DNA of 64,000 bases, from IMG/VR virus record IMGVR_UViG_3300042460_000519, positions 1,638 through 65,637 of that record; one strand, written 5' to 3'. The notes under the pieces are model-generated. The model was given only the letters and a program-made list of their open reading frames with translations, was not told the DNA's origin and ran no database searches. The translations under genes and the position numbers were made by a program. Numbering within the stretch: the first letter of the stretch is position 1; each line of letters starts with the position of its first letter. Source of the stretch: a virus. Its lineage: Duplodnaviria > Caudoviricetes. Below are positions 9,622-57,300 of this stretch, piece by piece.

Positions 9622-9662
9622 ATATAATAACAATAGCAAGCCCAATTAAGGACTTGCTATTG
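9622..9662 (-). terminator. Stem-loop terminator after 9672..10187
   Basis: Minus strand CAATAGCAAGTCC-TTAATT-GGGCTTGCTATTG followed by TTATTAT. Confidence 0.75.
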
Positions 9663-9671
9663 TATTATGCA

Positions 9672-32954: not shown

Positions 32955-33683
32955 ATGTCAACAGGTAGAAAATTAGTATCAGATGTTAGAAGCACACACA
33001 AGTTGCTATCTACTGATTCTTTGATTACAGACAGAGCAATACTTAGTGAAATAAGAAATAATTCTTTATTATTAATTAAGAGAGAAACAAACCTTAGAAA
33101 ACTTTGGGCAACAGATACATTGTTCACTACTATTCCTTGTTTAGAAATGTGTGAAGTTCCTCTTTCTGAATGTTGTGATTATGTAGACGAATGTACAATA
33201 GCTAGAAGCAAAGAAAAGATTCCACGTATATCAGAAGGTAATTACCAATATGTAATACAAGGAGTGTATTCTATTAATGCATTAGGAGGGCAAGGAAAGA
33301 AGCTAAAAGAAATATCTGTTAATAGATATATAAATCTTCTAAAGCTTCCTATTATTAAAAATGAAGCATACTTTTGGATTACCAATGGATATCTATATGT
33401 AAACAATCCATTATTACAAGCAGTTAGATTTGTTGCTTTCTTTGAAGAAGATGTGACAAATGATATTCTCTATCCTGAAGATTGTGATTGTGGAAAGCAA
33501 TTTACATTAGAAGAAATATGTATAAATCCATTAGATAAAAAGTTCCCTCTTCCTGGATATCTAGAACAACAAGTGTTACAATTAACTTCTCAAAAGCTTC
33601 TATCTACATATTTCAATATTAAAACTGATATTACAGCAGATGGTGTAGATGGACAAGCCCCTAATTCAAAAGCAACTAGTTAA
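32955..33683 (+). CDS. Tail ring/neck protein
   Basis: 242 aa; TDRAIL...PCLEM..VP...CC pattern and synteny with the crAss-like tail block. Confidence 0.55.
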   Translation: MSTGRKLVSDVRSTHKLLSTDSLITDRAILSEIRNNSLLLIKRETNLRKLWATDTLFTTIPCLEMCEVPLSECCDYVDECTIARSKEKIPRISEGNYQYVIQGVYSINALGGQGKKLKEISVNRYINLLKLPIIKNEAYFWITNGYLYVNNPLLQAVRFVAFFEEDVTNDILYPEDCDCGKQFTLEEICINPLDKKFPLPGYLEQQVLQLTSQKLLSTYFNIKTDITADGVDGQAPNSKATS

Positions 33684-41042: not shown

Positions 41043-41909
41043 ATGTCAAAAACTATTGTAATAAAGATAACCAAAACAGGACCTAATGCAGGACCTTTTA
41101 ACATCTCCACAGAGTTTGGGGATGTTCTTGCTACAGATGTTTCTAAAAAACAATTAATAGTTGGTGTTACATATATTGTTGATGATAATGTTACAAGTAT
41201 AATACTAGAATCTACAGGAAAATGTCCTGTTAAAAAATTCTTTTTTTTAGAATCTTATACCCCATTTGAATATGCTAGTTCAGCATATGTGCAATCAAGA
41301 ACAGCATGTCTATGGAGACACTTAACAAATATTCAATTGTATAATTCTTACTATGGAATTACACAACCATATATAATAGAATACCCTTTTGCTTATCAAT
41401 ACCAAGATGAAATCTTGCAGAACGTAAAAGACTACACTAAAGCGTATGAATATCTTGCTATACCAGATGGTGTATTTAATGATAACACACGAATAGAAGT
41501 TGATAACAAATGGTTTAACAAAGCTATTCTATATAATGGGCAACAGAGTTCAGGACTATTAGAACTAGTAGCTAAACCAATGAATAATCTAAGAGCATAT
41601 GGTCAATATCCAATATTCAATACTAACAGTAAAACAATCACATATACAAAGAGTGATAACTTCTATCAGTATAATACATTCTGGGCTTTAAACAAAAGTC
41701 CTTATGTTCCAATGTTCAATACAACATGTGAGTCTATGTCAATAGATAAAGTGATTAATGAAGCTAATATGGACTATGGCACTAGAAGCTTTAAGAAAGC
41801 CACGCTAAGAGCAAAAGAATTAAAGGTGAGACATATATTAGATAACAGTTCAGAAACGCATTTAGTGAGTCAATTTATAATCGCTCCTGCACAAATGTCA
41901 TACAAGTAA
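41043..41909 (+). CDS. Type A anchor fused to the probable C-terminal part of the tail stabilisation protein
   Basis: N-terminal AGPFNIST...ATDVS...IILESTGKC matches the type A domain; then LWRH...YNSYYG...YIIEY...FNKAILYN.QQSSG. Confidence 0.6.
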   Translation: MSKTIVIKITKTGPNAGPFNISTEFGDVLATDVSKKQLIVGVTYIVDDNVTSIILESTGKCPVKKFFFLESYTPFEYASSAYVQSRTACLWRHLTNIQLYNSYYGITQPYIIEYPFAYQYQDEILQNVKDYTKAYEYLAIPDGVFNDNTRIEVDNKWFNKAILYNGQQSSGLLELVAKPMNNLRAYGQYPIFNTNSKTITYTKSDNFYQYNTFWALNKSPYVPMFNTTCESMSIDKVINEANMDYGTRSFKKATLRAKELKVRHILDNSSETHLVSQFIIAPAQMSYK

Positions 41910-41910
41910 A

Positions 41911-43989
41911 ATGAAAGGAAAAGTAAAATGCACATGTGGATGGTCATGGAACAAATCTGATTCTAGTGCTAAGGATATGTATATATGTCATGAGTGTGGT
42001 AGAGACAATAGCAACAACATGAAGAATGGTGGTTGGTTAGATAGCTATGCTGATGGTGGAACAATGCAAGAACACCAAGAGAACTATAATGATTATAAAA
42101 TTTCTGCTCCTGAAGGTTTCAAAGGAACTGGATATAGTAACGTAGGACGTAACTATTCTCCTGCATGGGGAGGACAGTTTCAAATGGGTGGTAATGTATA
42201 TCCAGTTAATTATGTTCCTCAAGCACAAGAAGGAAAAACAATGTTTAAAAAACCAAGTATTCTTCAACAAGAATATATTGATCCAATATATTCATATTCT
42301 GAAAGAACAAAACTATATCCTTTAGAAGAAAAAGTATTTAAAGAAAGACCTGATGTAGCTGGAATGGCTGCTGGAGATAATCGTGTTATTATTAATCCTT
42401 GGTCTCCAATAAGTAAAGAGATGAAAGATCTTGTCAGAACAAATGAAACTGCAAGACTTGCAATGCGTAATGGATATCCAAGACCTGACTTTGAACTAAC
42501 TCCAAAACAACAAGAGTTTTTTAACACTGTTCAAAATGGTAAACCTTATTCTGAAGACTTACAAGATATAAAAGAGACTATTGCTGCTAGAGTAATGACA
42601 GGGGATGATAGTGCACAAGACTATACTAAAGAGCAAGAGCTTTATGCAGATAAGTTATTTGATGTATTAAAAAAATCAAAAGAATATGCTACTGGAATGT
42701 CAGGTATGATGAAATCTAAAATAGGAATGGGTAACGCTTTTGGTCATCCTGCTATTAAAAGAATGTCACAAGCTATGCCTAAAACAGGAATGACTCCTGA
42801 AGGAACAGGAACACATTATATGTCATCTGTAGATAACTACGCTGTACCAGAATTACAAGATCTTGGTGAAGAAGAACTAACATTGGTAGATCCTGATTCT
42901 AGAAGTAGAGAAGCAATTAGATTTAATTCTCCTGAAGAAGCAAACTATTTTGCAAAAAATTATAAAGATGTTGCTCCAATGACAAATATATTTGGAGATT
43001 TAAATAGTTTTAAAGCAGGTGGTTCTATTCCAGGAGCTGTAGGATTTACATATGCACGTACGAAAGGTATTCCTTCTAATGGTCCATATGCAAAGAAAAC
43101 AATGGCTAGTGCACAGAATGGTGTAGACATGCATGGTTCCCCTATTACAGCTATTGAAAAACATAGATATGATATAGATAGAAGTTACTATGATCCAAGA
43201 ACTAATATAATGAATCTTGGATATGATTATGCTGCATCAGACGATAAAGATAAAATGATTGCACATGAAAATTATCATGCTAAGCAACATAAAGAAGGTA
43301 GAGATAATTTTGATATAGCGCATAATACAGATAATGAGCAATGGGCAAGAATGCAAAAGCGTCCACAGATGATGACTACTCCTGAAGTTTGGAATAACTT
43401 TTATAATAGAAAAGCTATAGAGTCAGATATGATGATTAATAAAATAGCAGAGAGATTACCTGAATCACAGTTTTTTAGAAATGCTGCAGGAGATATAATA
43501 TATAATAAAATAGTTGATCCAAGACAATATAAGATTCCTTATTCTTTTGAAGGAGAAGCTGAGTATTATGAAAATACAGGAGAAGAATTTCAGAATGGAG
43601 GAGAGATGAGATATTACCAAAATGGTCTTGATTGGAAACCAAAAGGAATGAAAGATGGTGGATGGTTAGATGCATATAAAGAAGGAGGAATCATTAAAGA
43701 TGATAGAGGACAATGGGATCATCCAGGAGAGATAACAGAAATCAATTCTAATGATATAACCATGGAAGGAGTACCTTATAATGTTCTTGGTATATCAGAC
43801 ACAGGAGATACAAAACTAATGAAGCCAGGAAAGAACTATAAGTTTAAAGGAAAGAAGGTTACAGAGTTTCCTATGGCTAAAAATGGATTAAGACAAGAAC
43901 AAAAAGGTTTGGTGAATTTAGACAATCTACTTAACTTTACAAATTATAATAAACCACAACCAGGTGGATGGTTGAGCAAATACGAATAA
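41911..43989 (+). CDS. Cargo (ejection) protein with Zn ribbon, zincin domain and repeated xxGG motifs
   Basis: CTCG...CHECG; AHENYHAKQH...FEGEAEY (HExxH plus distal Glu); position before the RNAP block. Confidence 0.65.
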   Translation: MKGKVKCTCGWSWNKSDSSAKDMYICHECGRDNSNNMKNGGWLDSYADGGTMQEHQENYNDYKISAPEGFKGTGYSNVGRNYSPAWGGQFQMGGNVYPVNYVPQAQEGKTMFKKPSILQQEYIDPIYSYSERTKLYPLEEKVFKERPDVAGMAAGDNRVIINPWSPISKEMKDLVRTNETARLAMRNGYPRPDFELTPKQQEFFNTVQNGKPYSEDLQDIKETIAARVMTGDDSAQDYTKEQELYADKLFDVLKKSKEYATGMSGMMKSKIGMGNAFGHPAIKRMSQAMPKTGMTPEGTGTHYMSSVDNYAVPELQDLGEEELTLVDPDSRSREAIRFNSPEEANYFAKNYKDVAPMTNIFGDLNSFKAGGSIPGAVGFTYARTKGIPSNGPYAKKTMASAQNGVDMHGSPITAIEKHRYDIDRSYYDPRTNIMNLGYDYAASDDKDKMIAHENYHAKQHKEGRDNFDIAHNTDNEQWARMQKRPQMMTTPEVWNNFYNRKAIESDMMINKIAERLPESQFFRNAAGDIIYNKIVDPRQYKIPYSFEGEAEYYENTGEEFQNGGEMRYYQNGLDWKPKGMKDGGWLDAYKEGGIIKDDRGQWDHPGEITEINSNDITMEGVPYNVLGISDTGDTKLMKPGKNYKFKGKKVTEFPMAKNGLRQEQKGLVNLDNLLNFTNYNKPQPGGWLSKYE

Positions 43990-43990
43990 T

Positions 43991-46900
43991 ATGAAAGCAC
44001 AATTTTTAAAAATCGCTAAGTGTAAAACTGATAAAGAGTTTTATAAAAAATATCCAACAGAAGCAGCTTTCTTCAAAGCTCATCCTGAAGCAAAGACATC
44101 TATTAAGAAAGCTCAACTAGGTGCTTATATAGGTGGTGATACTATGAAACCTGCTAAACCAATTAATTATCAAGATATATATGATGATCTTGATAAACAA
44201 CTTACTGGTAGTACAGAACGAGAAAGACTAGAGATGGCAGCAAAGCAAGCAGCAATTGCTGCAGCATCTAAATCATCTGGTGGTGGTGGAGGTTTTGACA
44301 TGTCTAGTATGATGAGCATGTTTGGTGGAGGTGGTGAAGGAGGAGGCTCTGTTGGAGAAGGAATTATGTCAAGTGGTGGTTTTGGAGCTATAGGTGGAGG
44401 TATTGGTGGAGCTAAATATGGTAAGCGTATTCCTAAAGCTCAAGTTGGAACAGATGTTAATGGTAATGGTATTCCAGATTATTTAGAAAATATCCAACCA
44501 CAAATGGGCCCAACTCAAAATTTTTCTGCACAATCTTTTCCTCCATTATATTCTCCTAATGCTCAGCAGACAGGACAGAATTCTTTTCAATCTCCAAATG
44601 CATTTGCCACTCCTAATTATGGACAACAGTTCATGAATAATGCTAATCAAACTACTTCAGGTATGAGAGGTATTCCTCAAAGTCTTCCAAGTGGTATTGG
44701 ATATACACCTCCACAAGGTAGTGAAAGTGGCAATGGAGTGGGAGGAGCTTTAAAAGCACTTCCTTTAGTTGGACCAATTGCTGGTGCAATTGATGCTTTT
44801 GCAGAACAGAAAAAGATGAAGGGTTCAGCTGAACAAGCAATGCTTCTTAGTGGGCTTGCATTAGATCTTTCTAGAATGAGACCTGAACAAACAGAAAGAA
44901 AATATGTTCAACCTAAAGATAATGTAATACAACCAGGACAATTAGCTCGTGCACGTGGTGTAGGAACTAATATATTAACTAGAAATGGTGGAGCAGTTAG
45001 AAAAGCACAAGATGGTACAGTTGAAACTCCTCAAATAGATGGTGCTCCTACAGATTGGTATGAAGAAGGAATGGATAAGGATACATACTATGGATTTAAG
45101 AAACAACTTGATGATGCTGGATACCAAGCTATACCAAAACCAGAAAGTGTAAATGTTAGAGACATGCAAGCTATAACTGAAGAACAACCAGATCCTAATC
45201 AAATGTCTGGAGAGCAAGCAGCTGCATTTATGGAAATGTATAATAGAGATCAAGGGACATCAACTGCAACATTTGATTCTAAATCTGCTAGAGATAACTG
45301 GGTTCAGAAAACAGGACTTCCTTGGAGTGAAGCTAAAAGACTTGGATATACATCAGGATCTGCAAAAGATAATAATAAACTATTAGCTGAATTAAATGAT
45401 CCTAGATTTAAAAAAGAAAATCTAAGAACAGAAGCTCCTAAGAAAAGTTCTCAAACACGTACACCTGTACAACATAGAGATACACCAACAGGAAAACTTG
45501 CTCCTATTAAAAAACCTCTAACTCTTGATGAATATTTTAAAGGTAAACCTAAATATACAAAAGATCAAGGTGAGATAAGAATGCCTGATGAAGGAACTAT
45601 GATTGATAGAGTTGGCGAACGTTTGGCTAATCCAGGACAGACACTTGCTAGTTTAGCTAAATATGGAGAATTGCCTGCTAGAGGATTTTCTAAAAATGAT
45701 AAAAATGCTTATGATCAAGTGCTAGGAGTTGCCAATCCTTTTTATTGGGGAAATGCTTTAGTTAATGCTAAAGATTATGTAACCCAAGGAGAATATAAAA
45801 AAGCAGCAATAGAAGCTGCTGATGCATTGCCAGCATTAGGAAAACTTAAATATACTAAATATATACCATTCAATAAAGGTCTTCCACCTGCAAGTGTGCG
45901 TAGAGCAGGCTATTTAGGAGAAGGTGCTAAAAGACTTAAAGCTGCTCCTGCAAAACAATTACCTGCAGCTTCACCTAGAATGTTAAAGCAACCATTCACT
46001 CCTAACTTTGTTATGTATGAAGATGGTGGAGAAATACAAAATACATACGCCCCTGGTTATCTATATGATGATCTTGGATATGAACCATTAAATGATTCTA
46101 ATGTAAAACAATATTATCATGGAGGAGGCATTCCAAGAGCACAAGGTGGTTTCTCAAGTTTTATGGGAGCAGGAGGTACAGATATGTTAAATAGTGCAGT
46201 TGGTCAAGGGTTTAACAATAGTGCAGGATATCAAATGGGTAGTGCTATTGGAAACATAGCAAATGTAATTCCTGGTGTAGGACCTGTAGTTGGAGCTATT
46301 GCTGCACCTATTTTAGGTACTATTGGTGGAGCATTAGATCAAGCATTTGGTGATGCTGGAAAAATAAAAAAATTCCAAGCAAAAGCAAAGAAAAATACAG
46401 AGGGTGCAGCAATGAATAATATGGCTCAAGGAATACAAGCTGGAAATGCTAGTGTAATGGAAGATGGTGGATGGGTTAGTAATGATTGGCAACCACAAGT
46501 TATAGCTTCATTTGGTGGTCTTGACCAACAAGACTTTTATGACTATGCACATGATGGAATGGAATCATTAAGAGCAGGAGGTCACATAAGAGGAGAATAT
46601 CAACCTATTAGTAATAGAGGTATGGAACAATATGCTATGGGTGGTGAAGTTAAAACTACCTGGGGTGGACATGCTGAAACTATTTCACATAATCCATATA
46701 TGCCAGGATCAGGAGAAACTATTATGTTCAGAGGAAAATCACATGATGAATCTGATGGTAATGGTAATACAGGTATAGGTGTTAAATATGGTAAGGGTGG
46801 ACATGATAGCTATACAGACTATGCTGAATATGGAACTCAAGAAGCTGATGCTGATGTAGAAGTTGAAAGAGGAGAACCAGCTGCAGAATTACAAGATGCT

Positions 46901-48628
46901 AATGGTGAAAAGAATTTAACAGTGTATGGTAATTTAAAAATTCCTAATCAATATATAGATCTTTTAGGAGATCCAAAAGCTAAAGGTAAAAAGTTTAAAA
47001 ACTATATAGCTGAAATTTCTAAAGATGAAGATAAAATAAGTAAAGGGATAGAAGATTCTACAAATAAACTTAATGCATTGAATGTACAAAATTCATTTGA
47101 TAAATTAAAATTAACTTCTTTACAAGCTAATATACAAGGAGCTAATATGAAACTTAAAGATATAGCTGACAAGAAAATAAATGCAGCTCATTTACAAAAT
47201 GCTATTAATGAAACAGCAGAAGAAAATGGTTTAGTTGCTGATGATCTTGCAAGAGGTAAAGTGAAAGTTAATGAAGAGGCTATGCAAGAATATGCTGAAT
47301 ATGGTAAGACAATCAAAAAAGCTAAAGATGGTGACAAAATCAAAGGTGATAAAATGACAGTCAAAGAAGCTATTGCAAAAGGATATAAATTAGAAGCTGA
47401 TGGTAAATATCACTTAAGAACTAAATCAGAAGATATACCTGAAAAAGAAACAAAAGTGGGTGAAGCAATGGCAGAAATTCCTAAAGGACAAAAACAAACT
47501 ACATCAGGAACATGGGGCAAAGTGACACCAGAACAATATGAACAATTTAAAAAAGATAATTCCTCTTGGTTTGACTTTACTAACTTTGATCCTAAGAAAA
47601 AAGATGATGTAAAATATTTCCAAAGAAGATTTAATGAAGAAGCTGCAAAAACTGGATCAACTGCAAAGGTATTTGTAGATGGTGATCTTGGAGAGCAAAC
47701 TGTCACTGCAAGAATAAAAGCTGCTAAACAAAAAGATCCATCTGTAGCTACAGATAAAGTGGCAGATATATACGAAGAAGATAAAGTGTATGATGAAAAT
47801 GCTAAAAAAAGAAATCCTTGGATAGATGCTGTAGGACAAGTACTTCCTTTTATTAGACCTTCAAATCAAGAAGCATTTGATCAATCTCAAATTTATCCAG
47901 AAATTAGTTCAATTGTAAATAATCGATTAGAACCTGTACAAGCACAAGGTTACCAACCTGATCTTGGCACACCATATGATATTTCTTTACAAGATCAATT
48001 AAATGCTAACCAAGCAGATTTTGATTCTATAAAAAGACTATATGCAAATAATCCATTTGCTCTTGCACAATTTGCTGCTCAGAAATATGCTGCTAATGAG
48101 AAAGTTCTTGGAGATCAATTTAGAATGAATCAAGCTGAACGTTCTCGCGTATATGATAATAACAGAGACATTCTTAATGAGGCTAAGCTTAAGAACTTAG
48201 ATATATTTGATAGACAGTATACAAGACAGGAACAAGCTAAGAGTAATACAAAAGCTGTTGCACAAGCTGCATTAAATTCTATCACTGATAAATATGCTAA
48301 ACATAAACTTCAGAATAGAGAACTTGGTATATATGAAAACTTATACAATTATAGATATTCTCCATCAGGAAAAGCTATAAACATGAATGCTCCTTGGCAA
48401 GCTAACCTTCCTAACATGTATGATAAAGGTAGCAGAACTGCTAACATGCGTAAGGTGTATGACGAACAAGGAAACTTTTTACGCTTTGAGCCTATTGAAG
48501 AAACTACAACAGTTACTGACGAAACATTAGATGCTGCAGGTAAAACTCCTGGTATTGGTGATAAAAAGAATGGTGGTAAAGTGAAAGCTAAAAATGGTTC
48601 TATTGTAAGCGCATACAAAAATTTATAA
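43991..48628 (+). CDS. Large cargo (ejection) protein
   Basis: 1545 aa; Gly/Ala-rich hydrophobic segments, G.SH..G...EVERGE motif, DGDLGEQT peptidoglycan-binding-like motif, repeated xxGG motifs. Confidence 0.65.
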   Translation: MKAQFLKIAKCKTDKEFYKKYPTEAAFFKAHPEAKTSIKKAQLGAYIGGDTMKPAKPINYQDIYDDLDKQLTGSTERERLEMAAKQAAIAAASKSSGGGGGFDMSSMMSMFGGGGEGGGSVGEGIMSSGGFGAIGGGIGGAKYGKRIPKAQVGTDVNGNGIPDYLENIQPQMGPTQNFSAQSFPPLYSPNAQQTGQNSFQSPNAFATPNYGQQFMNNANQTTSGMRGIPQSLPSGIGYTPPQGSESGNGVGGALKALPLVGPIAGAIDAFAEQKKMKGSAEQAMLLSGLALDLSRMRPEQTERKYVQPKDNVIQPGQLARARGVGTNILTRNGGAVRKAQDGTVETPQIDGAPTDWYEEGMDKDTYYGFKKQLDDAGYQAIPKPESVNVRDMQAITEEQPDPNQMSGEQAAAFMEMYNRDQGTSTATFDSKSARDNWVQKTGLPWSEAKRLGYTSGSAKDNNKLLAELNDPRFKKENLRTEAPKKSSQTRTPVQHRDTPTGKLAPIKKPLTLDEYFKGKPKYTKDQGEIRMPDEGTMIDRVGERLANPGQTLASLAKYGELPARGFSKNDKNAYDQVLGVANPFYWGNALVNAKDYVTQGEYKKAAIEAADALPALGKLKYTKYIPFNKGLPPASVRRAGYLGEGAKRLKAAPAKQLPAASPRMLKQPFTPNFVMYEDGGEIQNTYAPGYLYDDLGYEPLNDSNVKQYYHGGGIPRAQGGFSSFMGAGGTDMLNSAVGQGFNNSAGYQMGSAIGNIANVIPGVGPVVGAIAAPILGTIGGALDQAFGDAGKIKKFQAKAKKNTEGAAMNNMAQGIQAGNASVMEDGGWVSNDWQPQVIASFGGLDQQDFYDYAHDGMESLRAGGHIRGEYQPISNRGMEQYAMGGEVKTTWGGHAETISHNPYMPGSGETIMFRGKSHDESDGNGNTGIGVKYGKGGHDSYTDYAEYGTQEADADVEVERGEPAAELQDANGEKNLTVYGNLKIPNQYIDLLGDPKAKGKKFKNYIAEISKDEDKISKGIEDSTNKLNALNVQNSFDKLKLTSLQANIQGANMKLKDIADKKINAAHLQNAINETAEENGLVADDLARGKVKVNEEAMQEYAEYGKTIKKAKDGDKIKGDKMTVKEAIAKGYKLEADGKYHLRTKSEDIPEKETKVGEAMAEIPKGQKQTTSGTWGKVTPEQYEQFKKDNSSWFDFTNFDPKKKDDVKYFQRRFNEEAAKTGSTAKVFVDGDLGEQTVTARIKAAKQKDPSVATDKVADIYEEDKVYDENAKKRNPWIDAVGQVLPFIRPSNQEAFDQSQIYPEISSIVNNRLEPVQAQGYQPDLGTPYDISLQDQLNANQADFDSIKRLYANNPFALAQFAAQKYAANEKVLGDQFRMNQAERSRVYDNNRDILNEAKLKNLDIFDRQYTRQEQAKSNTKAVAQAALNSITDKYAKHKLQNRELGIYENLYNYRYSPSGKAINMNAPWQANLPNMYDKGSRTANMRKVYDEQGNFLRFEPIEETTTVTDETLDAAGKTPGIGDKKNGGKVKAKNGSIVSAYKNL

Positions 48629-48740: not shown

Positions 48741-51380
48741 ATGGCATCATGGACAGATAATCCTCAATTGCTTACCAATTTTAATCCATATGTATCTCAA
48801 CTTCCTGTTGAGGCAATGGTTAAAGTTGGTATGGAAAAACAAAAACAATATGATGAGGGTGTACAAAAGATACAAACAAATATTGATAACATTGCAGGAC
48901 TTGACATAGTTAAAGACTCAGATAGAGCATATCTACAATCAAAGATAAATCAACTTGGTAATGATACAAGAATATTTGCAATGGCAGATTTTTCTAATGC
49001 ACAGATGGTTAACTCTGTAAATGGAATGACAAACTCTCTTATAAAAGATAACAATATTCAAAATGCTGTAGCTTCTACAGCTAAATTGAGAAAAGAACAA
49101 CAACGAAAAGAAAAGGCAATACAAGATGGTAAATCTTCTCCAGAAAATGAATATGTTTTTAATCTGCAAGCATCTGAATATATAAATAGTTCAGAAGTAG
49201 GAGAATCTTTTAATGGTCAATATATTGAATATAAAGATGTAGATAAGAAGCTTAGAGACTTGCATTCTAAATTAAAAGAAGCAGATTATGAAGTAGATGA
49301 TCCATGGATTAGAGATGCAAAAACAGGTAAAGATATTTATTTTAATCCTGATGGTACGCAATCTTTAGATGCTTCTAAAGGAGGAAAAAGACAATATGAT
49401 CAAGTAATGCTCACTACTAAATTTAAAGGTATAGGGGCAGAAAAAATATTAAATAACTTTTACGATAGTCTTGATGAAACTGATATAAGACAATTAGGAA
49501 TTACAGCACAGTATAAATATAGAGATAAAGATTATACATATTATCAAAATGAAATCATAACAAGCTATGATGAAAAGAAAAAAATATATTCAGATGCTAT
49601 AGTAGATGCTACAGTAATGTTAGAAACTAAACAACTAACTACAGAACAAAAAACAAGTCTTAAAAAACAAATAGAAGAAGCTAGAGCTCTTGTTTATGAA
49701 GGAGGTTTTGACAAGGAGATGCAACAAGATCTTGAAAAAATTGATACAGAGGGAGAAGAGATAGGATATAAAACTAAAATATATACACAAAAGTATTTAA
49801 CTAATCTTGCCAAAGATCTTGATAATGAAACAAAGTCTGTAAAATATAATGATAACCCAGGATTCAAAGCAATAATGAGTGTTAAGCAATTTGAATTTGA
49901 TGTGGCCAAAGAAAGACAAAGAGAAAGAGAGAAGGCAGCAGACTATGCAATAGATTTAAGAGAGCTTGCATTAAAAGAAGAAGAGGCAATAGCAAAAAGA
50001 AAAGAAGCTAAAAAGTTACAACCTATTGTAACTGATGCACCTCTTGAAACAGATTTTACTAAGTTTAGTGTAGAAGATGAAGATTTAACTCTTGCACAGA
50101 TCAATCAAGGTTTAGGTACAGCAAAGCAAAAATTAGCAAGATTATTAAATCCTAATTTTAATGCTAAAGATCCAAGACAAGTAGCAGAAGCAATGAAAAC
50201 AGCTAATGAGGTATATGAAGAGTATTTACAAAATCCTAATGAAATAGATGATAATAATAAAAGAGAACTATTAAAAGAAATTCAAGCATTAAGTAATTCT
50301 AAAAATTTTACAAGTAGAAGAATAGATGCTGCTAAAAAAGCAGGATCAGGTTTTGCTGCTGATGCAGAAAAAGTTATCAATAAACAAAATGGTGTAAGAA
50401 TTGGAAGTACAGTTTACACAGCAAAAGAATTATATGATTTTCAAGATGAAGCTGGTAAATACATTAAGCAATATAATGTTAAAACAGCTGATGGATATGA
50501 CTCAAGATATATGATGACAGATGATATATTAAAAAAATATGAAGGAAAGAAAAAATATCCTATCGCATTAGCTCTATATAAAAGTTATAATAAAAAATCA
50601 TTGTCTCCAGATGAACAAGTGATTGCTAATCAAATTAATATAATAAATAAAAACACTTCTAGAGATGTTAATAAATTAGTAAAAAAACAAAAAGAGGCTG
50701 AATCTAAAACTTTATACGATCTTAGTCCTACAGTACAAGGAATGAAAATTCAAATAAATTCAGAGAATAAAAATGATATAAGTACTATTGAACAAATCAT
50801 AGGATTAAAAACTACACAATATAATGAGCTTGGTTCATTAGATTCTGAAAAACCAGATGACTTTAATATTGATAAGTTAAATGCATTTAATGAAAGTAAA
50901 AGTAAAGGATATACATATGTAAAAAATCCTGATGGAGGAGCAACATTATTGTTAACAGGAGGAGCTGATAATGTAAAAATAAAATTATCTGCAGATGAAT
51001 TTAATCAATGGGTTCCTGAATATTCATATTTAAATCCTATGACAACCCTCACTAAATTTATACAAAGTTCTCCAACAAAAACAACAAATACAAACAATAC
51101 AAAAGATGCTTCCACTGCACAAATATCTGGATATAATCCTTTATTGCCTGGAATAAACAATTCAAGAATAGCTCCAAAAGTTAGAGCTGATATTGAAGGT
51201 AGTAAAAATAATACAGGAAATCCTTTAACTGATTTATTTCAAGTTAGAATTTATTACAAAGCTACAGGAAAAGATTGGGATGATAAAGTTATAAATAGTG
51301 GAGGATATATTAATAGCATGCAGGCTCAAGAATTATTATCTACCATAGGACCAGATACAGTTATTAAATTGTTTAAATAA
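48741..51380 (+). CDS. Cargo (ejection) protein preceding the virion RNAP
   Basis: 879 aa helical protein; FNPYVSQLP N-terminus and synteny. Confidence 0.6.
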   Translation: MASWTDNPQLLTNFNPYVSQLPVEAMVKVGMEKQKQYDEGVQKIQTNIDNIAGLDIVKDSDRAYLQSKINQLGNDTRIFAMADFSNAQMVNSVNGMTNSLIKDNNIQNAVASTAKLRKEQQRKEKAIQDGKSSPENEYVFNLQASEYINSSEVGESFNGQYIEYKDVDKKLRDLHSKLKEADYEVDDPWIRDAKTGKDIYFNPDGTQSLDASKGGKRQYDQVMLTTKFKGIGAEKILNNFYDSLDETDIRQLGITAQYKYRDKDYTYYQNEIITSYDEKKKIYSDAIVDATVMLETKQLTTEQKTSLKKQIEEARALVYEGGFDKEMQQDLEKIDTEGEEIGYKTKIYTQKYLTNLAKDLDNETKSVKYNDNPGFKAIMSVKQFEFDVAKERQREREKAADYAIDLRELALKEEEAIAKRKEAKKLQPIVTDAPLETDFTKFSVEDEDLTLAQINQGLGTAKQKLARLLNPNFNAKDPRQVAEAMKTANEVYEEYLQNPNEIDDNNKRELLKEIQALSNSKNFTSRRIDAAKKAGSGFAADAEKVINKQNGVRIGSTVYTAKELYDFQDEAGKYIKQYNVKTADGYDSRYMMTDDILKKYEGKKKYPIALALYKSYNKKSLSPDEQVIANQINIINKNTSRDVNKLVKKQKEAESKTLYDLSPTVQGMKIQINSENKNDISTIEQIIGLKTTQYNELGSLDSEKPDDFNIDKLNAFNESKSKGYTYVKNPDGGATLLLTGGADNVKIKLSADEFNQWVPEYSYLNPMTTLTKFIQSSPTKTTNTNNTKDASTAQISGYNPLLPGINNSRIAPKVRADIEGSKNNTGNPLTDLFQVRIYYKATGKDWDDKVINSGGYINSMQAQELLSTIGPDTVIKLFK

Positions 51381-51393
51381 ATAAAATAAAAAT

Positions 51394-54300
51394 ATGCCAA
51401 TTTTTGATAATGATCTTATAGATAATGTTTCAAATAGAAACTATGATCAAGAAGATGTAAATATAGGTTCTGGATTAGGTGCTGATAGAGAGATAGATTC
51501 TCAAATAGGACTAGCTATGCCTGGACAATACAATGATTCTTTTAGAGGAATAAGTCCAGAAGAAGCTAGATTTTTTAAAGGATCAACTATTAGAACTCCT
51601 AACTCTCCTTTTGGTATGGTTTCTAAAAGTGAACTTCTTGCTAATCAACGTTATCCATTATATGAAAGAGGTATTAATCTTGAAAATGTATATGGCTTAC
51701 AACAATCAGGACTTTCACAATTAGGAAATGGTCTTATTAAAATGGGAGCATTTGCATTAGGAACATTTGGTCAATCATTTGCTACAATTCCTAATACAAT
51801 ATCTGCTGCAAAAAATCTTAGTTTAAAAGACCTTTCAAATCCTGATGGATATGAAGCATCTATTGATGATTGGATTAAGAATGTAGAAGATTACTTTCCT
51901 AACTATGTAACAGAATATGAAAAGTCAAGAGGACTTGCTACAGCTATTCCTTTTACATATGGGTCAGCAAACTTCTGGGGAGATAAAATTCTAAAGAATT
52001 CAGGATTTATGGTGGGAGCAATTGGAGGTGCTATTGCTCAAGATGCTATAATTGGTGCTGTTACAGAAGGAGTTGGTGCAGTTCCATTAGTTGCTGCTCA
52101 ATTGGGAAGAGCTTCTTTATATTTAAATAAATTATTTGCAGGTACTAATAAAGTTGATAAGGTGTTAGATCTTGCTAGAGCTGCTGGTAAATCTGAAAAA
52201 ACATTATTGAACATTGAAAGACTTGGACAACTTGCTGCTGCCACAAAATTAAATAATGGATTTAGATATGGAATGTCTATATATGGATCTGCGAGAACAG
52301 AAGCAGCTATTGAATCAAGAGAATCTTATAGAACAATAAAGGAACAACTTACAGAACAATATAAAATAGATAACTTTGGTGAAGATCCTACACCAGAAGT
52401 AATTCAACAAATAGAAGATTATGCTACAGATGCTATGAATACTAGATTTGGTATGAACATGGCTCTTCTAACTGTATCTAACTCTGTTCAGTTTGGTAAT
52501 TTATTTAAATCATTTACAGGAGCACAAAAAGGAATTACATCTTCTGCATTAAAAGATTTTGGATCTGCAGGTAAAGTGGGTCTTAAAGAAGGAACTCTTG
52601 ACACATTTGAAAAGAAACTTCCACAAACATTTTCTGGTAAAGCTTGGGAGTTTGCAAAACCAAAAGCAATTAATATATTCACAGAAGGTGTTTATGAAGA
52701 AGGTGGGCAGTTTGCTACACAAAAAGGTGTAGAAGATTATTACACAAGAAAATACAAATCAGGAAAAGAAAGTTGGGACTTTGTAAAAGAAGCAATGGCT
52801 TCTACTTCTAAAGGAATGGCTGAACAATTTGGTTCTTCTGAAGGTATAGAAAGTATGGTGATTGGTGCTATTACAGCTGCTATCACTGGACCTGTTGTAG
52901 ATAGAGTTACAGGTAAATCAAAAGCAGACAATCAAAGACTTAATAGTACACTTAACATATTAAATCAATATGGAATGACAGGTGTGCTTTCTGATAAGTA
53001 TGAAGATACATCAAGAAGTGTTGAGATAGCAAAGCAGATGAATGAAGCTGTTAATTCTGGAAACATATTTAAGTTTAAGAATTTAAAATCTGATATGTTC
53101 TTTGGGTTTGTAAACTCTCGTATTCCTATAGGAATGCATGACGTTACAATTGAACAATTAAATATGTTAAAAGATCTTCCTAAAGAAGAATTTGAAAAAA
53201 CATTTGGTATGGACTTCAATAGTTCAAATCAATCTACAGTGAGTGGGTATGTTGATGCGTTGATAACTAAAGCTAATAACATTAATGACATATCAACATC
53301 TTTAAATTCAACATTTAATAATCCTTACAGTAGAATCATAGATCCTAAGACAGATGATGAAAAAGTTGAGTCATTAAAATATAACATGTTCAATAACTGG
53401 AAAACAGACCTTGCAAATTTTTCATATACTCAACAAGACTCTAATCAAAGAATTGCAGATATACAAACAGCTATATCAAACATAAACCCTCTTCTTACAA
53501 ATGATCTTTTAACATTAACAACAAGTGAAAAAGGATTAAAAGAATTAAGTGATGCATATCAACAAAAAGCAAACTTATTAAGTGAGTCCCTTGCTAATCT
53601 TTCTCCTGCAGAAAGAACAGCTAAACGTGAAGAGATTAAAAAACTTAGAACTCTATCTGAGAAAATAAGCATTGCTTTAAATTCTAATAAAATTGATGAT
53701 GCAAAATTGTTTAATGAATTAATTAATTTTGAATTAGCTGGTCAAGATTTTTCTCAACCTAACAATTTAAGAATAGATCAAAGCACAGGTCTTATAGAAT
53801 ATGCTGAAGATTTAAATAAATTAAATGCTAGAAAAGAACAAGCTGCTACAAGTTTTGAAGATCTTTCTACAGAGAAAGGATTTGATAAATACTTTGCACA
53901 AGAGGAAGAAATTCAGAAAGAAAAAGAAGAACAAGCTGAAACAATAACATCTCCAGATGATGAGAAGTTTGGATTCTTAAATAAGACTGGTAAGAAAGAA
54001 ACAGCAGAAGTTGGTAGAGAATATCAAGTTCCTGGTTTCTCTACTGCTAAAGTTAGAAAAGCTGGTGAGCAGTTTAAAGTGATATCTCCTACAGGTGAAA
54101 TTACTTTTTATGATACACAAATAGAAGCTAAACAGGCTGCTGATGATCTTAACGTAGATTTTGCAGAACTAACTACAGTAAAAGTTATTGGGTTAAATGA
54201 GGATGGTACAATTAAAGTGGAAGACTTAGCTGGTAATATTCAGAATATAAACCCTTCTCTTCTTAAAGGATATGAAAAAATACAAACAGAAGAAGAGAAA

Positions 54301-57300
54301 CTTGCTAAGGATAAAGAAACTCTTGATAAAGAATTAGAAAAATTAGCACCTACAGCAGGTTCTGTACAATCTGTTTCTCCTACACCAGGTGAATTTATTG
54401 GTACAGATAGTAAAGCTAAAGATGTTGATATAGTTTTCTTGGCTACAACATCTCCTTCTGAAGATACAGCAGGTAATGAAGCTAACAATCTTCCTCATAT
54501 AAAAAGAGCTAGAACATTCTTAAATAATTTTAAATTCTTTAAGAATAGAAATAAAATAAAAGCAATCATTGTCACTCCTAGTAACGTAAATGAATTAGGA
54601 CTTGAAGGGCTTATACAATTATCTTATAATAAAAACATCACAGATCCTTTAACAGAAGATGAAACTAATGTTGAAAAGGGATTCATGGCTCAAGTGTTTA
54701 TTATACAAACACCTGAAGGAAACTTTTTTGTTAATGAAAAAGGAGAGAAGTTAAATAAAATAGGAGAAGACTCAGACACTATACTTGATAATGTTGTATT
54801 TCAAACAATGACTTCTGCTAGTTTATTTACAGAAGGAGGATATACAAAAATTAGAAAAGGGCAAGAAGAACAAGCTGACATAGCATTAGAAGCATATAAA
54901 ATATTCAGACAAGAACTGTTTGGACAAACTGGATATACACCTTATCCATTTGCTATATCAAGAGGTATACCAAATCAAAATATAGTTAATGGTGTATATG
55001 AAGACAATCACATGTCTGATATACTTGGACCAAATGCAGATAAAATAATTGCTGAACATAATGGATTGATTGAAGTTGTTACTACTGGACAAGTAGAAAA
55101 CAATGCAGAACTATTATCTTTTCCTGAAGGAACAACATTAATTAGATTTGGTGATTTGTTAGACTTTGCAAATAATAAAGTGTTAACTAACAAACAAGCT
55201 AATAATGTATTCCATGTAATAAATGCAATGGCTAAAGATTTAATTGCTAAATCTAGCACAGCTAAAGCAGGTAAACCTGATTATGGATATATTACATTCT
55301 TAAAGAATGTTTTATATTTTAAATTTAAAGGAAGCCCAACTACTCCTAGTCAAATAAGTATTGACACTGCAACAATGAATTTTAAAATAGGAGATAAATC
55401 TTTTCCTTTTTCTCAAATTGAATCTAGAAAACAAGAATTAATGGATGCTTTACAAGAAGCATTTATTAGTGTAAACAATAAAACTCTAACTGATTTAGGA
55501 ACATCTAAAGAGTTTACAGAATATGTAGCTGACAAAGATGGAAACCTAACAAAGGTTGTATGGCCTAACTATCAATCATTTTTATTAGCTAGTAAAAATC
55601 CTGATGGATCTGCAAGATCTGTAGGAGAAACTCCTTTGATTACACATACAGCTAAACCAACAGATAATACAAATTCATACAAACAAAAGTATTCATATAT
55701 AACAGGTACAGATATTCTTCCATATGATAAAGTTCCTGTCAAAGAAGCTAAACCAGCTCCTACACAAGACAAAAATAAAATTGGAGAATATGAAGTGAAT
55801 ACATCTACTCCTCAAAAGTTTCCTATTAACTCAGGAGATATATTATTTACAGCAACACTATCTCCTGAAGGAGAAGTTGCAGTGGATGTAAAAAGTAACC
55901 AAACAATCTCTGATCTTTCTACAGATCCAGTAAAGATTAAAACTATTGATAGTTCATTAAAGGCAAAGCTGTCTCCTGAAGAAATAGAGCAGTTTGATAA
56001 AACATATTCAAACGAGGAGAAAGCTAAGTTATATTTTAAAGCAGCAATAACACAATCATTAAACAAAACATTAGCAGAACAACAAGCTACTCCTACAGCT
56101 GTAGAAGAACAAGTTGTACAACCAATAGCTCCACCAGAAGTTGTAGCTCAACAAGATATAGAAGCTAAGAAAGCTGATATAGAAAAGAAAGTAAATAGTT
56201 TACCTGATAATTTATTGTTTATAACACATATAACTTCAGAAGGAAATGCTGTAAATATTTTTAATGATAATTTATTAATGCCTGCTGGAGTAAGTTCTAC
56301 TACAGGTATAGTTACTAAAGAACAATTAAAACAAATATTATTTGATTTAGCTGAAGGTAAGTCTCCTCATAGAGGATATTTAGATATGTTTATAGGGGCA
56401 ATTGATAGATTAACTCTTGAAAATACTAATGGAAAAAGTTTACAAGATAAACTAGAAAACTATTTAGATGAAAACTTTATACAAGATGTTGCAAAAACAC
56501 AATTGCCATCTAGTTTAAATATTGGTTATTTTACAGATGGTGTTTTAAATACTAAGTATGATACACAAATAGAAGAAAAACTTGCAGAAGATGCTCCTTA
56601 TGATCCTTCTAAAATAATAAAAGAAGATGATGCTCCTGAGTTTAGAATGGTTGGAGAAGATGATTCGTCTGATAGAATGACAAATTCTGAATTAGAAGCA
56701 TTTAAAGAATGGCATGCTAAGAATGTTCCTTTTATTCCTTTTGAGATATTAGAAAACATTATTAAAAGAGGTAACATAACAGCATGGGGTGTATTTGAAA
56801 ATGGTGTAGCTAAGTTTGTTAGAGGTGGACTAAGAGGTACAGAATATCATGAAATCTTTGAAGCTATATATGCAGACTTCTTAACAGAAACTGAAAAGAA
56901 TAATTTGTTAAATGAATTCAGAAATAAAAAAGGAGAGTTTATAGATAGACAATCAGGTAAGAAAATAGCATACATTGATGCTACAGATAAACAAGCTAAA
57001 GAAAGAATAGCAGATGACTTTGCTGATTTTAGACTTGGTAAACTTCCTGCTAGATCGTTAGGTGAATCTGTACGTAATTTGTTTAAAAGAATTATGGACT
57101 TCTTCAAATCATTTGTAAGTAAACCATCAATGAAAAATGAGTTGTTTAAAGCAATTGATTCTGGTAAGTTTAAAGAAACAAAATTATCTGAGAGAGCGAA
57201 AGCATTATCTCCAGAATATAGAGCAATACAAGGACTTACAGAAGAACAAACTAACAACTATATCAATGATATGGTATTTCAAGTTAGTCGTATCATATTT

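Follow-up and report, generated by a model that had tools for sequence, protein, structure and literature searches.

Conserved junction peptides mark module borders in two putative cargo proteins of an uncultured crAss-like phage

Two neighbouring genes of an uncultured crAss-like phage code for proteins punctuated by short glycine-containing motifs, and the locus raises the question whether these motifs are module borders, protease cleavage sites, docking tags or a by-product of composition. The window, i.e. the whole 64,000-nt stretch of phage DNA that was analysed, carries on the + strand the genes of tail ring 2 (32955-33683; Pfam CrAss_Ring_2, 2.8e-18), ring 1 (34178-35146; CrAss_Ring_1, 6.8e-11) and the muzzle (35149-41040; crAss_MUZ, 8e-34), and an ORF of 288 aa resembling the muzzle C-terminus (41043-41909; phrog_15100 positions 1588-1781 of 1783). 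These are followed, on the same strand as all features described below, by the ORFs of the putative cargo proteins P1 (P0001, 692 aa, 41911..43989) and P2 (P0002, 1545 aa, 43991..48628), both defined by translation and homologues. In 43 related loci the P1 gene lies downstream of the muzzle gene and the 288-aa ORF. The cargo genes of crAss001 occupy the position after the muzzle gene, as do the P1 and P2 genes here. P2 residues 1163-1242 are 39.5% identical to a virion structural protein of Cellulophaga phage phi17:2, and the C-terminal beta domain of P1 has BFVD matches in uncultured phage proteins (E 2.3e-9) and in a structural protein of Cellulophaga phage phi4:1 (E 1.4e-3). Judged from the position by the muzzle gene and the annotation of the Cellulophaga phage relative, P1 and P2 probably travel in the particle and enter the host by ejection.

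All motif strings listed in the original prediction are present in the translations: MKNGG (37), YADGG (46), FQMGG (90), AQEG (105), YATG (259), FKAGG (367), AQNG (401), FQNGG (560), YQNG (569), MKDGG (580), YKEGG (589) and AKNG (656) in P1, and KAQLG (40), AKYG (141), KAQVG (149), RNGG (331), KAQDG (338), YEDGG (676), YHGG (709), RAQGG (716), MEDGG (823), RAGG (861), YAMGG (881), KAKDG (1110), KNGG (1526) and KAKNG (1532) in P2. Enrichment was assessed with 3000 residue shuffles per pattern. The general form first proposed, [YFAM]xxG, did not clearly exceed a Gly-rich background (19 observed and 12.8 expected in P1, reached by 104/3000 shuffles; 40 and 34.1 in P2, 429/3000), but tighter patterns did: [FYM]xxGG occurs 7 times in P1 (0.82 expected) and 10 times in P2 (1.80 expected), and [KR]A[QK]xG 6 times in P2 (0.33 expected), counts that none of the 3000 shuffles reached. 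GGW is found 3 times in P1 (0.08 expected; 1/3000). When Gly-richness was controlled by conditioning on GG, [FYM] at position -3 remained significant (7/9 in P1, P=3e-5; 7/21 in P2, P=4e-3). The tight patterns were defined post hoc, after inspection of the sequences; that they predict block borders in relatives gives them independent support.

The usual arrangement, which we call a seam, begins with an aromatic residue or Met, followed by two residues (the first often Q, A or K), Gly-Gly, a short spacer and finally A-Q/K-x-G, most often AQxG. The spacer is x-[IV]-P-x, WLDxYxx, [SN]VYPVNYVPQ or a 29-30-residue element of the form SIPGAVGF...KKTxxS. Over 43 related loci the density of [FYM]xxGG / A[QK]xG per 1000 aa was 5.1 / 3.5 in the P1 class and 5.0 / 3.7 in the P2 class, 0.6 / 0.6 in the muzzle, 0 / 0 in the 288-aa class, and 0.5 / 0.4 and 0.8 / 0.9 in the classes of the downstream 879-aa and 4075-aa proteins (48741..63621), which are not seam-rich by motif counts. 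The next protein, of 879 aa, has no [FYM]xxGG and one A[QK]xG. The 4075-aa protein shows no enrichment (4 observed, 1.7 expected, 273/3000 shuffles); it has DFDID at residue 3179, and crAss001 gp47 aligns with it at 25% identity over 568 aa (BLASTP against a 10-protein database, E 7e-19).

The ends of blocks shared with relatives pile up at the seams, in P1 (119 homologues) as well as in P2, where they gather at 42-49 and 672-681. In all-against-all comparisons 48.7% of 9264 HSP ends in the P1 set lay within 10 aa of a seam (20.1% for random positions), and 38.5% of 2390 in the P2 set (16.0%); decoy motifs gave ratios of 0.6-1.3. Indels were then defined at the DNA level in P1 gene pairs whose flanks were 80% or more identical, which gave 249 events with 90 unique junction pairs. 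One junction or more was within 8 aa of a seam in 90/90, and both were in 57/90, compared with 4.2% for random positions and 0/87 for decoys. In roughly half of the pairs the two flanking alignments share up to ~35 nt of the shorter gene, which means that seam sequence is present at both ends of the insert. Protein-level indels had both junctions at seams in 490/1787 cases of the P1 set (2.2% random) and 65/225 of the P2 set (1.5% random). Because of the common ancestry of the relatives, these breakpoints cannot be counted as independent events.

Could the motifs nevertheless simply reflect a Gly-rich composition and common ancestry, without any border role? Besides the weak enrichment of [YFAM]xxG, it speaks for this that many instances in the homologue set are one ancestral site counted repeatedly, and that GG without a preceding [FYM]xx is also somewhat enriched by block ends (ratios 1.6-1.8). 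Shuffles, the GG-conditional test, the lack of border association of the decoys and the indel junctions did not support it, and the signal at -3, -2 and +2 around GG persists in 864 GG contexts that share less than 35% identity with one another. We regard this explanation as extremely improbable. The seams are real and lie at domain edges where relatives differ by whole modules; that they are true module borders, as had been proposed, we hold to be very likely.

P1 has 1111 homologues at E<=0.001 among metagenomic relatives, with mosaic architectures. Sequence comparison shows a small chassis, conserved and provided with slots; relatives in bare form measure ~180-260 aa, and 631 relatives of 125-401 aa are made up of just the seams, the beta domain and two small modules. 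The protein starts with a CxC...CxxC zinc-ribbon-like module recognised from sequence (residues 1-36, 41911..42018), which is optional, many minimal relatives beginning at M-A-K-G-W-L-D, and weakly modelled (pLDDT 58-69 in the chassis model). Seam 1, MKNGGWLDSYADGG (residues 37-50, 42019..42060), is an insertion site in relatives (e.g. L004, L007, L041). Seam 2, FQMGG-NVYPVNYVPQ-AQEG (residues 90-108, 42178..42234), is defined by block ends, the right ends clustering at 94-96 (29) and 106-111 (21), and by DNA-level indel junctions. The slot 1 cassettes (residues 109-366, 42235..43008) are missing from minimal relatives and covered by just 6-25/119 homologues; they include a weak internal border, YATG at 259, and a folded core at 130-187 (pLDDT 82-87). 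As a lead only, stand-alone viral look-alikes of slot 1, of 137-138 aa, were seen in the ESM Atlas (TM 0.81-0.83).

Seam 3 is the long form, FKAGG-SIPGAVGFTYARTKGIPSNGPYAKKTMAS-AQNG (residues 367-404, 43009..43122); it holds 12 invariant columns of alignment A1, and the left ends of blocks fall at 359-370 (44), the right ones at 404-407 (33). It precedes a zincin-like cassette (residues 405-559, 43123..43587; pLDDT 65-83) with the HExxH sequence HENYH at 452. In fold this cassette weakly matches VgrG2b, a metallopeptidase effector (6h56_B, Z 4.5, rmsd 4.1, 100 aligned), and PprI (8sln_A, Z 4.4, rmsd 3.5, 84 aligned). Zincin-like cassettes are present in 113 representative clusters, at varied positions. 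Seam 4, FQNGG-EMRY-YQNG-LDWKPKG-MKDGGWLDA-YKEGG (residues 560-593, 43588..43689), is defined by block left ends at 549-556 (27) and 584-590 (56), and residues 562-607 have pLDDT below 50. The chassis C-terminal beta domain (residues 594-655, 43690..43875), identified by homologue coverage and BFVD, is the most widely conserved part of P1, covered by 102-115/119 homologues, with pLDDT of 73-83 in the P1 model and 78-86 in the chassis model. Seam 5 (AKNG, 656-659) with the conserved tail and the terminal GGWLSKYE at 685-692 (43876..43986) is an insertion site in L018, L019 and L030; the terminal GGWL is nearly invariant.

For P2, residues 1-700 found 572 homologues at E<=0.001. The conserved N-terminal module ends at the seam KKAQLG (residues 39-44, 44105..44122), where blocks end at 42-49 and K39, K40, A41 and G44 are nearly invariant. 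The variable region that follows (residues 45-675, 44123..46015), delimited by homologue coverage and motif positions, is split by AKYG/KAQVG (141-153) and RNGG/KAQDG (331-342) and covered by only 2-7/34 locus homologues. The conserved core extends from YEDGG onward (residues 676-1545, 46016..48625; block left ends at 672-681). Its internal seams are YYHGGGIPRAQGG (708-720), MEDGGW (823-828), RAGG (861), YAMGG (881-885), KKAKDG (1109-1114) and KKNGGKVKAKNG (1525-1536), in which G711, G712, G826, G827, G863, G864, G884, G885 and A1111 are invariant or nearly so.

On balance, and with no great confidence, we lean towards reading the seams as hinge-like peptides at the junctions, with a repeated coding sequence through which modules can recombine in frame. 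P1 and P2 are in this reading modular (polyvalent-type) proteins, with a conserved peptide joining one module to the next; the seams would be flexible, exposed hinges between independently folding modules, letting the chain thread like beads on a string. In the DNA each junction would repeat the same few codons, so that short-homology recombination between seams could insert, delete or exchange whole modules with the frame kept, and P1 would be a small chassis whose fixed slots take variable cargo; cutting at the seams would not be required. The hinge role is suggested by low pLDDT in two modest-quality models (mean 45.9 and 57.9): ten of the 12 listed P1 sites fall in 10-residue blocks with mean pLDDT below 50, the remaining two being located at either end of the zincin domain, at its first and its last residue. 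For the recombination mechanism, the end states are what it is deduced from. Synonymous variation occurs among the seam codons (GGT 57%, GGA 40%) and DNA repeats between seams within the window are only 66-76% identical, both of which we count toward constraint at the peptide level; third-codon variation is somewhat lower at the long-seam glycines (0.43-0.56 bits) than at two nearby invariant glycines (~1.0 bit), in only 23 instances, and a DNA-level constraint may act as well.

A mere hinge would not need the conserved aromatic residue at -3, Q/A/K at -2 and I/L/V two residues past GG; in alignment A1 seams make up 7.9% of residues but 20.5% of columns with at least 90% identity. This conservation suggests that the seams are recognised by something. 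We found no published description of the seam peptides.

A first rival reading is that a protease, the zincin module or another phage or host enzyme, cuts after Gly-Gly or AQxG, either inside the capsid or once ejection has taken place, and so frees the modules of a polyprotein as separate effectors. The zincin-like module of P1 is flanked by AQNG and FQNGG, the footprint conserved around GG spans -3 to +2, and exposure is predicted for the stretches that contain the seams. Of 103 zincin-bearing representative proteins, 82 have a seam at the upstream edge and 75 have one at the downstream edge, a pattern that persists under 38% identity (18/25 and 16/25). Small zincin proteins (186-320 aa) keep a seam on either side, an arrangement as compatible with recognition or processing as with a joint. 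Processing by zincin-like peptidases has been proposed for polyvalent proteins (PMC5512222) and for the phi14:2 gp65 zincin (bioRxiv 10.1101/2020.03.07.982082). However, the zincin is an optional cassette: P1 has HExxH in 22/42 related loci, and seams are as dense without it (9.4 per 1000 aa) as with it (8.0). Of the 20 loci lacking it in P1, four have HExxH in the 4075-aa-class ORF, and in 16 none was found within at most 10 kb on either side; a Pfam search of 36 window ORFs found no other protease family. Virion gel bands of crAss001, of about 150, 270 and over 300 kDa, fit uncut large cargo proteins, the bands being unassigned in the passage describing them (PMC6235969). The main text of the crAss001 structure paper treats gp45 as one chain from tail to capsid and contains no words for proteolysis or cleavage (PMC10172136). 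N4 vRNAP bears an HExxH subdomain, and in the main text of the N4 structure paper the term 'proteoly' does not occur and the sole 'cleav' term concerns removal of a tag by TEV protease (PMC13434306). Cleavage at the motifs, as originally predicted, was not supported in that form, and we consider it unlikely.

Alternatively, the seams and adjoining conserved unstructured chassis segments could be short linear motifs docking on the portal, the rings, the capsid interior or other cargo, repeated partner pockets loading and positioning whatever the chassis carries. In 72 sequences, residues 49-130 and 196-225 of the chassis rank with the best conserved, yet have pLDDT below 50, as is typical where folding takes place on a partner. 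P1 ends with GGWLxKY and in many relatives starts with M-A-K-G-W-L-D, the same motif as the enriched GGW. In crAss001 gp45 the portal-bound domain, residues 425-552 (PMC10172136), starts A-F-G-G-W-L, FAYGG follows at 559, and a predicted membrane helix (136-158) has I-G-G-W-L at its end. Against docking, motif count tracks cassette number and not structural symmetry. Enrichment in gp45 is weak ([FYM]xxGG 3 against 1.2 expected, 355/3000; A[QK]xG 5 against 1.5, 40/3000; GGW 2 against 0.15, 31/3000), and P2 is not demonstrably homologous to gp45 (29.7% probability in hhalign over 49 columns; BLASTP E 0.38 for the candidate domain). Docking by the seams seems to us decidedly improbable, and the proposed motif-dependent packaging tag found no backing as formulated; chassis parts common to all relatives, including the C-terminal beta domain, are better candidates for a packaging handle than a motif of 4-5 residues.

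Returning to the seams as junctions, the cargo that they border is diverse. The 117 complete P1 relatives contain 406 inter-seam segments of at least 60 aa (101 families, 62 singletons), and known effector types occur among the relatives: ART-PolyVal in 2/47 long relatives and a YkuD domain in 1/20 relatives of P2. Since the seams mark module borders in relatives, the predicted plug-in architecture for variable modules is supported, modules having been added, lost or swapped at seams among more than 1000 metagenomic relatives. With cassettes gained and lost as units at the motifs, P1 and P2 thus form a plug-in scaffold.

Two adjacent genes of the window, encoding proteins of 692 aa (P1, 41911-43989) and 1545 aa (P2, 43991-48628), carry Gly-ending motifs, which the original prediction had described as delimiting the domain cassettes of cargo proteins. 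All motif strings listed there were found in the P1 and P2 translations. The general pattern proposed for them, [YFAM]xxG, did not clearly stand out from the background when patterns were compared with 3000 shuffles each: it occurred 19 times in P1 against 12.8 expected (104/3000 shuffles) and 40 times in P2 against 34.1 (429/3000). The narrower form [FYM]xxGG was far above chance in both proteins (P1, 7 versus 0.82; P2, 10 versus 1.80; 0/3000 shuffles each). In P2, [KR]A[QK]xG was found six times (0.33 expected, 0/3000 shuffles), and in P1 GGW was found three times (0.08 expected). Phe, Tyr or Met occupies the -3 position in 7 of the 9 GG pairs of P1 (P = 3e-5) and in 7 of the 21 of P2 (P = 4e-3). 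Because these residues are preferred at -3 given a GG, the signal is not a by-product of Gly-richness.

The motifs had been said to come in pairs, and the usual unit indeed consists of [FYM]xxGG, a spacer and A-Q/K-x-G. We call this junction peptide a seam, and the module between two seams a cassette. Recurrent spacers are x-[IV]-P-x, WLDxYxx, [SN]VYPVNYVPQ and a 29-30-residue form, SIPGAVGFxYART...KKTxxS. The P1 set contained 231 such units, the P2 set 182. Across 43 loci, the seam density of P1- and P2-class proteins exceeded that of the muzzle, 288-aa, 879-aa and 4075-aa classes by a factor of 6-10. The 879-aa protein of the window, encoded directly after P2 and ahead of the 4075-aa protein, has zero GG-type motifs, in keeping with the claim that the motif is missing from the next cargo protein. 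Synonymous codons vary within seams, and a search for long exact DNA repeats between the seams of the window found none, the repeats being only 66-76% identical; the constraint thus acts mainly on the peptide. Codon choice in 23 instances of the long seam spoke neither for nor against a constraint on the DNA itself. Besides joining modules, the seam may also be recognised by a partner.

A search at E≤0.001 yielded 1111 P1 homologues, of which the best 120 were kept; residues 1-700 of P2 yielded 572, and the minimal P1 form 631. The relatives of both proteins have mosaic architectures. P1 consists of at least five separately conserved blocks, which are distributed differently among the homologues. 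In 119 homologues (from the best 120 of 1111) the ends of the blocks shared with P1 accumulated at the seams, with right ends at 94-96 (29), 106-111 (21) and 404-407 (33), and left ends at 359-370 (44), 549-556 (27) and 584-590 (56). The variable middle of P2 (45-675) is bounded by KAQLG and YEDGG. In all-against-all comparisons 48.7% of 9264 block ends in the P1 set were located within 10 aa of a seam, as compared with 20.1% of random positions; in the P2 set the values were 38.5% of 2390 and 16.0%. Decoy motifs gave ratios of 0.6-1.3 near block ends. GG without the aromatic residue gave 1.6-1.8, which suggests that the regular expression misses seam variants such as KNGG and KQGG.

Gain and loss of blocks were also followed at the DNA level, between the P1 genes of the window and of 43 related viral contigs, using pairs with flanks at least 80% identical. 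The 249 large indels found correspond to 90 unique junction pairs. At least one junction was within 8 aa of a seam in 90/90, and both junctions were at seams in 57/90, whereas the same inserts placed randomly reached 4.2%; the decoy motifs scored 0/87. For roughly every second pair, the alignments of the two flanks share as much as ~35 nt of the shorter gene, which means that seam sequence is present at both ends of the insert. Among protein-level indels, whose counts include related events and are not independent, both junctions were at seams in 490/1787 in the P1 set (2.2% random) and in 65/225 in the P2 set (1.5% random). Every border test pointed the same way. The suggestion that blocks are gained or lost as units at motif borders was thus borne out, and the seams are module borders with unit-wise gain and loss.

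In our preferred reading the seams act as junction peptides at two levels. In the protein they would serve as exposed hinges between independently folding modules; in the DNA, as recurring short homologies through which whole modules may be inserted, deleted or exchanged in frame. We infer both the hinge role and the recombination route. Free-standing homing-endonuclease genes adjoin P1 in some relatives (3 of the 9 neighbouring ORFs tested). In two related loci a GIY-YIG endonuclease is encoded between P1 and P2 (L003:12592-13215 and L009:11038-11658), and in a third a NUMOD-type endonuclease lies upstream of P1 (L025:9285-9992); the latter ORF ends with ...AQISYK, the same as the 288-aa protein preceding it. 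Endonucleases in this position could promote exchange in the region.

The smallest P1 relatives comprise ~180-260 aa, and many of them are encoded on contigs longer than 100 kb. They are built from the following parts, which we refer to as the chassis: GGWLDxY, with or without a zinc ribbon; a module of 40 residues that closes with SPAWGGQFQMGG; the long seam; a small beta domain; and AKNG with a conserved tail, GGWLxKY being terminal. In the larger relatives cassettes are found after FQMGG, after the AQNG of the long seam, after the first GGWL and after the AKNG behind the beta domain. The 117 complete relatives contained 406 inter-seam segments of at least 60 aa, which fell into 101 families, 62 of them singletons. 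Cassettes that could be named in P1 relatives were ART-PolyVal (PF18760; 2/47 long relatives), DUF6973 (1/47) and the zincin. Among P2 relatives a YkuD domain was present in 1/20, the other Pfam hits being mostly to low-complexity sequence without a significant stretch. P1 of the window carries two cassettes at 109-366 in addition to the HExxH-bearing, zincin-like one (405-559). In the ESM Atlas the look-alikes of the cassette at P1 119-257 (42265-42681) were free-standing viral proteins of 137-138 aa (TM 0.81-0.83), to be taken as leads only; rows of metallopeptidase families fell below the bar. Look-ups of P2 344-675 and P1 109-366 gave feature scores of 0.81 or less, likewise leads only.

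AlphaFold2 models had a mean pLDDT of 45.9 for P1 and 57.9 for a 229-aa minimal relative, confident folds being restricted to the 130-187 core, the zincin and the C-terminal beta domain. Of the twelve listed motif sites in P1, ten fall in 10-residue blocks with a mean pLDDT below 50, and AQNG and FQNGG form the first and the last residues, respectively, of the zincin domain. Within the limits set by the quality of the models, the seam motifs thus lie between folded units. Two strongly conserved stretches of the chassis, 49-130 and 196-225, were left without a confident fold. A Foldseek comparison of the P1 model with the PDB gave no match at E≤0.001, and a profile search of the PDB with A1, the alignment used for the conserved P1 columns, gave nothing below E 0.88. 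With VIA-align wide the best hit of the P1 model (Z 5.2) was a single long helix, and the zincin scored Z 4.4-4.5; the chassis model also reached Z 5.2, among rows that included cupin and CUB-like beta sandwiches. None of these matches to the P1 and chassis models was strong enough to name a fold.

The genes stand in a structural block. Pfam identified a P22-type portal (14182-16767), the crassvirus major capsid protein (Crass_capsid, 18197-19762), tail ring protein 2 (32955-33683), tail ring protein 1 (34178-35146) and the muzzle protein (35149-41040). The Crass_capsid, P22_portal, ring and muzzle matches indicate that the DNA is of phage origin, and by gene content the window is a portion of a crAss-like phage genome. 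A search of 50,697 phage records with the major capsid protein gave that of Leptolyngbya phage Lbo-JY46 as the best match, at only 26% identity, and Azobacteroides phage ProJPt-Bp1 as the second best (22%). Judged from sequence, the phage is a member of a lineage without cultured members and has no close cultured relative. Up to ~10.2 kb (1-10187) the ORFs of 100 aa or more are encoded by the minus strand; beyond 10.56 kb (10559-63999) nearly all are encoded by the plus strand. GC and AT skew switch sign at this change of strand, and the segment at ~10.2-10.56 kb is the divergent junction of two gene blocks.

The muzzle gene is followed by a 288-aa ORF (41043-41909), which by its PHROG match resembles the C-terminal end of longer muzzle proteins. 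This ORF matches only the last 200 positions of phrog_15100, and the N-terminus of the muzzle protein matches the same family; the muzzle protein therefore seems to be divided between two genes in the window and in the 43 related loci. The 4075-aa protein (51394-63621) contains a single DFDID at residue 3179, a motif described for crAss-like virion RNA polymerases (bioRxiv 10.1101/2020.03.07.982082). Its first 570 aa resemble crAss001 gp47 (25% identity), and the protein appears to fuse parts that are encoded separately in crAss001.

P1 and P2 matched no Pfam or PHROG family, and a tblastn search with P1 retrieved none of the 50,697 phage records at 1e-5. The sole match of P2 in cultured phages was to Cellulophaga structural proteins (39.5%), within residues 1163-1242 (47477-47716). 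This segment contains DGDLGxxT, a motif known from peptidoglycan-binding domains; Pfam reported no such domain there. Residues 95-140 of P2 (44273-44410) form a Gly/Met/Ser-rich low-complexity run, GGGGGFDMSSMMSMFGGGGEGGG..., which resembles the Gly-Gly-Met tails of chaperonins; similar G/M-rich runs are present in relatives.

In Bacteroides phage crAss001 the two genes after the muzzle encode the cargo proteins C1 (gp45) and C2 (gp46), which were detected in virions (Bayfield et al. 2023, PMC10172136). P1 and P2 are directly downstream of the muzzle block, in the order muzzle, 288-aa ORF, P1, P2, the crAss001 order being gp44, gp45, gp46, and they are thus the positional equivalents of the cargo proteins. 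A second line of evidence comes from gp041 of the cultured marine Cellulophaga phage phi17:2 (NC_021798.1; L044:4315-7002), an 895-aa protein annotated as virion structural protein, which matches both P1 and P2. In a three-protein database, the chassis profile of P1 hit gp041 at residues 29-86 (E 1.2e-8) and the profile of P2 hit it at residues 351-643 (E 2.6e-12); by BLASTP gp041 and P2 were 39.5% identical over 81 aa. In addition, Foldseek matched the chassis model to the counterpart protein of phi4:1 (E 1.4e-3). Gene position and the annotation of this relative suggest that P1 and P2 are packaged in the virion.

Four seams were found in gp041 (FQAGG, YQNGG, FQIGG and FQSGG; 0.67 expected, 11/3000 shuffles), the first of which immediately follows the P1-like beta domain. 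The protein differs from P1 and P2 in belonging to another genus, Lightbulbvirus, in having the P1- and P2-like parts fused in one gene, and in lacking the A[QK]xG half of the seam. Because both parts occur in this single protein, P1 and P2 are parts of one functional unit. Read together, the end of P1 and the start of P2 (GGWLSKYE / MKAQF; 43963-44005) look like a single seam interrupted by a stop and a start codon. An origin by ribosomal recoding or as a gene-fusion scar was considered as an explanation of function and rejected; the resemblance to a split seam shows only that the genes form one unit.

Some features are shared with gp45 of crAss001 (PDB 7qog and others). Like P1 and P2, gp45 is Gly-rich (12.6%); it carries GGWL twice, where the portal-bound domain starts and where a predicted membrane helix ends, contains FAEGG, FAYGG, AKDG and AQAG, and ends with KKAKGG, whereas gp46 has none of the GG-type motif. 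In BLASTP comparisons of P1 and P2 with gp45 and gp46, E was at least 0.7. Hhalign of the P2 family with gp45 gave a probability of 29.7% (E 5.6e-4) over 49 columns, and the P1 chassis profile matched gp45 371-432 with a domain E of 0.029 in a three-protein database. A description of cassette swapping or of a seam motif for C1 or C2 was not found in the accessible text of the crAss001 structure paper (PMC10172136).

The original prediction had proposed that the motifs are either capsid-docking tags or protease cleavage sites. The first proposal is suggested by the position of the motif in gp45, where the portal-bound domain (425-552) starts with AFGGWL and FAYGG follows at 559 (PMC10172136). 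Motif enrichment in gp45 is weak, however, and homology between P2 and gp45 is not established; we regard a docking role of the seams as unlikely. A packaging handle is more plausibly sought in the chassis segments that are conserved but lack a confident fold, and in the beta domain, which all relatives conserve, than in the short motif.

In favour of cleavage, P1 itself carries a zincin. Of 103 representative zincin-bearing proteins, 82 have a seam at the upstream edge of the domain and 75 at its downstream edge, also below 38% identity, and small zincin proteins retain both seams. The conserved footprint around GG is also broader than a hinge requires. However, the zincin behaves as one more cassette. 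HExxH was present in P1 of 22/42 loci and missing from 20/42, so that the sites are not always accompanied by a zincin in P1, and seam density was no lower without it (9.4 in P1 and 9.2 in P2 per 1000 aa, versus 8.0 and 8.1 with it). Of the 20 loci without HExxH in P1, four have one in the ORF of the 4075-aa class, and 16 have none in the sequence covered, which extends up to 10 kb on either side. In the window the HExxH of P1 is the sole one of the block, and Pfam detected no other protease family among the 36 ORFs. In crAss001, gel bands of ~150, 270 and >300 kDa were reported (PMC6235969), and the structure paper (PMC10172136) regards gp45 as one chain. In the main texts of openly available papers on Cellulophaga phages and crAss001, these band sizes were the only proteomic evidence found. 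Cleavage at the seams is possible yet not indicated, and we consider it rather improbable.

A combined reading, that the recombining peptide is also recognised by the zincin cassette, acting in cis or on co-packaged proteins, or by another protease, so that after ejection the chain splits at [FYM]xxGG and AQxG into free effectors, is in our estimate unlikely. If it were true, any module placed in a slot would automatically be packaged, delivered and released, and sequence alone would reveal the exact cut sites for thousands of crAss-like and related Bacteroidota phages that have not been cultured.

Other viruses also label their packaged or core proteins with short motifs, some of which end with Gly-Gly. 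Packaged proteins of T4 and phiKZ-like phages have capsid targeting sequences and prohead-protease sites, those of T4 being N-terminal, and the core proteases of adenoviruses, asfarviruses and poxviruses use Gly-Gly-X sites; in each case the head or core protease that cuts is known. The seams differ from the core-protease sites in having the hydrophobic residue at -3 from the first Gly, not at -2, and from T4-type targeting sequences in being internal and repeated, with at least 10 per protein. Pfam detected no head protease family among the 36 window ORFs, which does not prove its absence. The seams also resemble the His boxes and Gly-rich motifs of T-even tail-fibre adhesins and to the pre-toxin motifs of polymorphic toxins, e.g. 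VENN, which flank variable cassettes and are thought to guide swapping recombination; the exchange junctions of P1 likewise map to seams (90/90 and 57/90). What varies in those systems is a receptor-binding tip or one toxin at the C-terminus, whereas P1 and P2 have several internal slots in putatively packaged proteins, enzyme-like modules and a different seam sequence.

P1 and P2 fit the published class of polyvalent proteins (Iyer et al. 2017, PMC5512222). These are large, extensively mosaic polypeptides of phages and conjugative elements in which unrelated modules, zincin-like peptidases and ART-PolyVal among them, are joined in one chain, and they are believed to be delivered to the host together with the DNA. 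Several unrelated domains are present in the P1 polypeptide. Of the polyvalent-type domains, P1 of the window has HExxH with weak fold matches (Z 4.4-4.5) and no Pfam hit; ART-PolyVal is present in 2/47 long relatives, not in the window. Zincin-mediated processing of polyvalent proteins was proposed without a junction sequence, and the word 'linker' is absent from the main text (PMC5512222). P1 and P2 have a defined recurring seam, a minimal chassis with fixed slots and an optional zincin, and these are added to the polyvalent-protein literature; in the main texts of openly available papers, no published description of the seam motif was found.

With module borders defined by seams, exact positions become available for testing the older proposal of polyvalent processing, and since phi17:2 is a cultured relative, a direct experimental test is possible. 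The seams also offer a practical rule for splitting such proteins into domains in annotation and structure prediction, and, should a cultured relative be used to deliver a chosen protein into its laboratory host, they would point to natural places for inserting it. Few known phages are as abundant as the crAss-like ones. If their cargo proteins rest on a fixed chassis with coded slots, this would explain how the injected toolkit can vary fast while assembly is left undisturbed.
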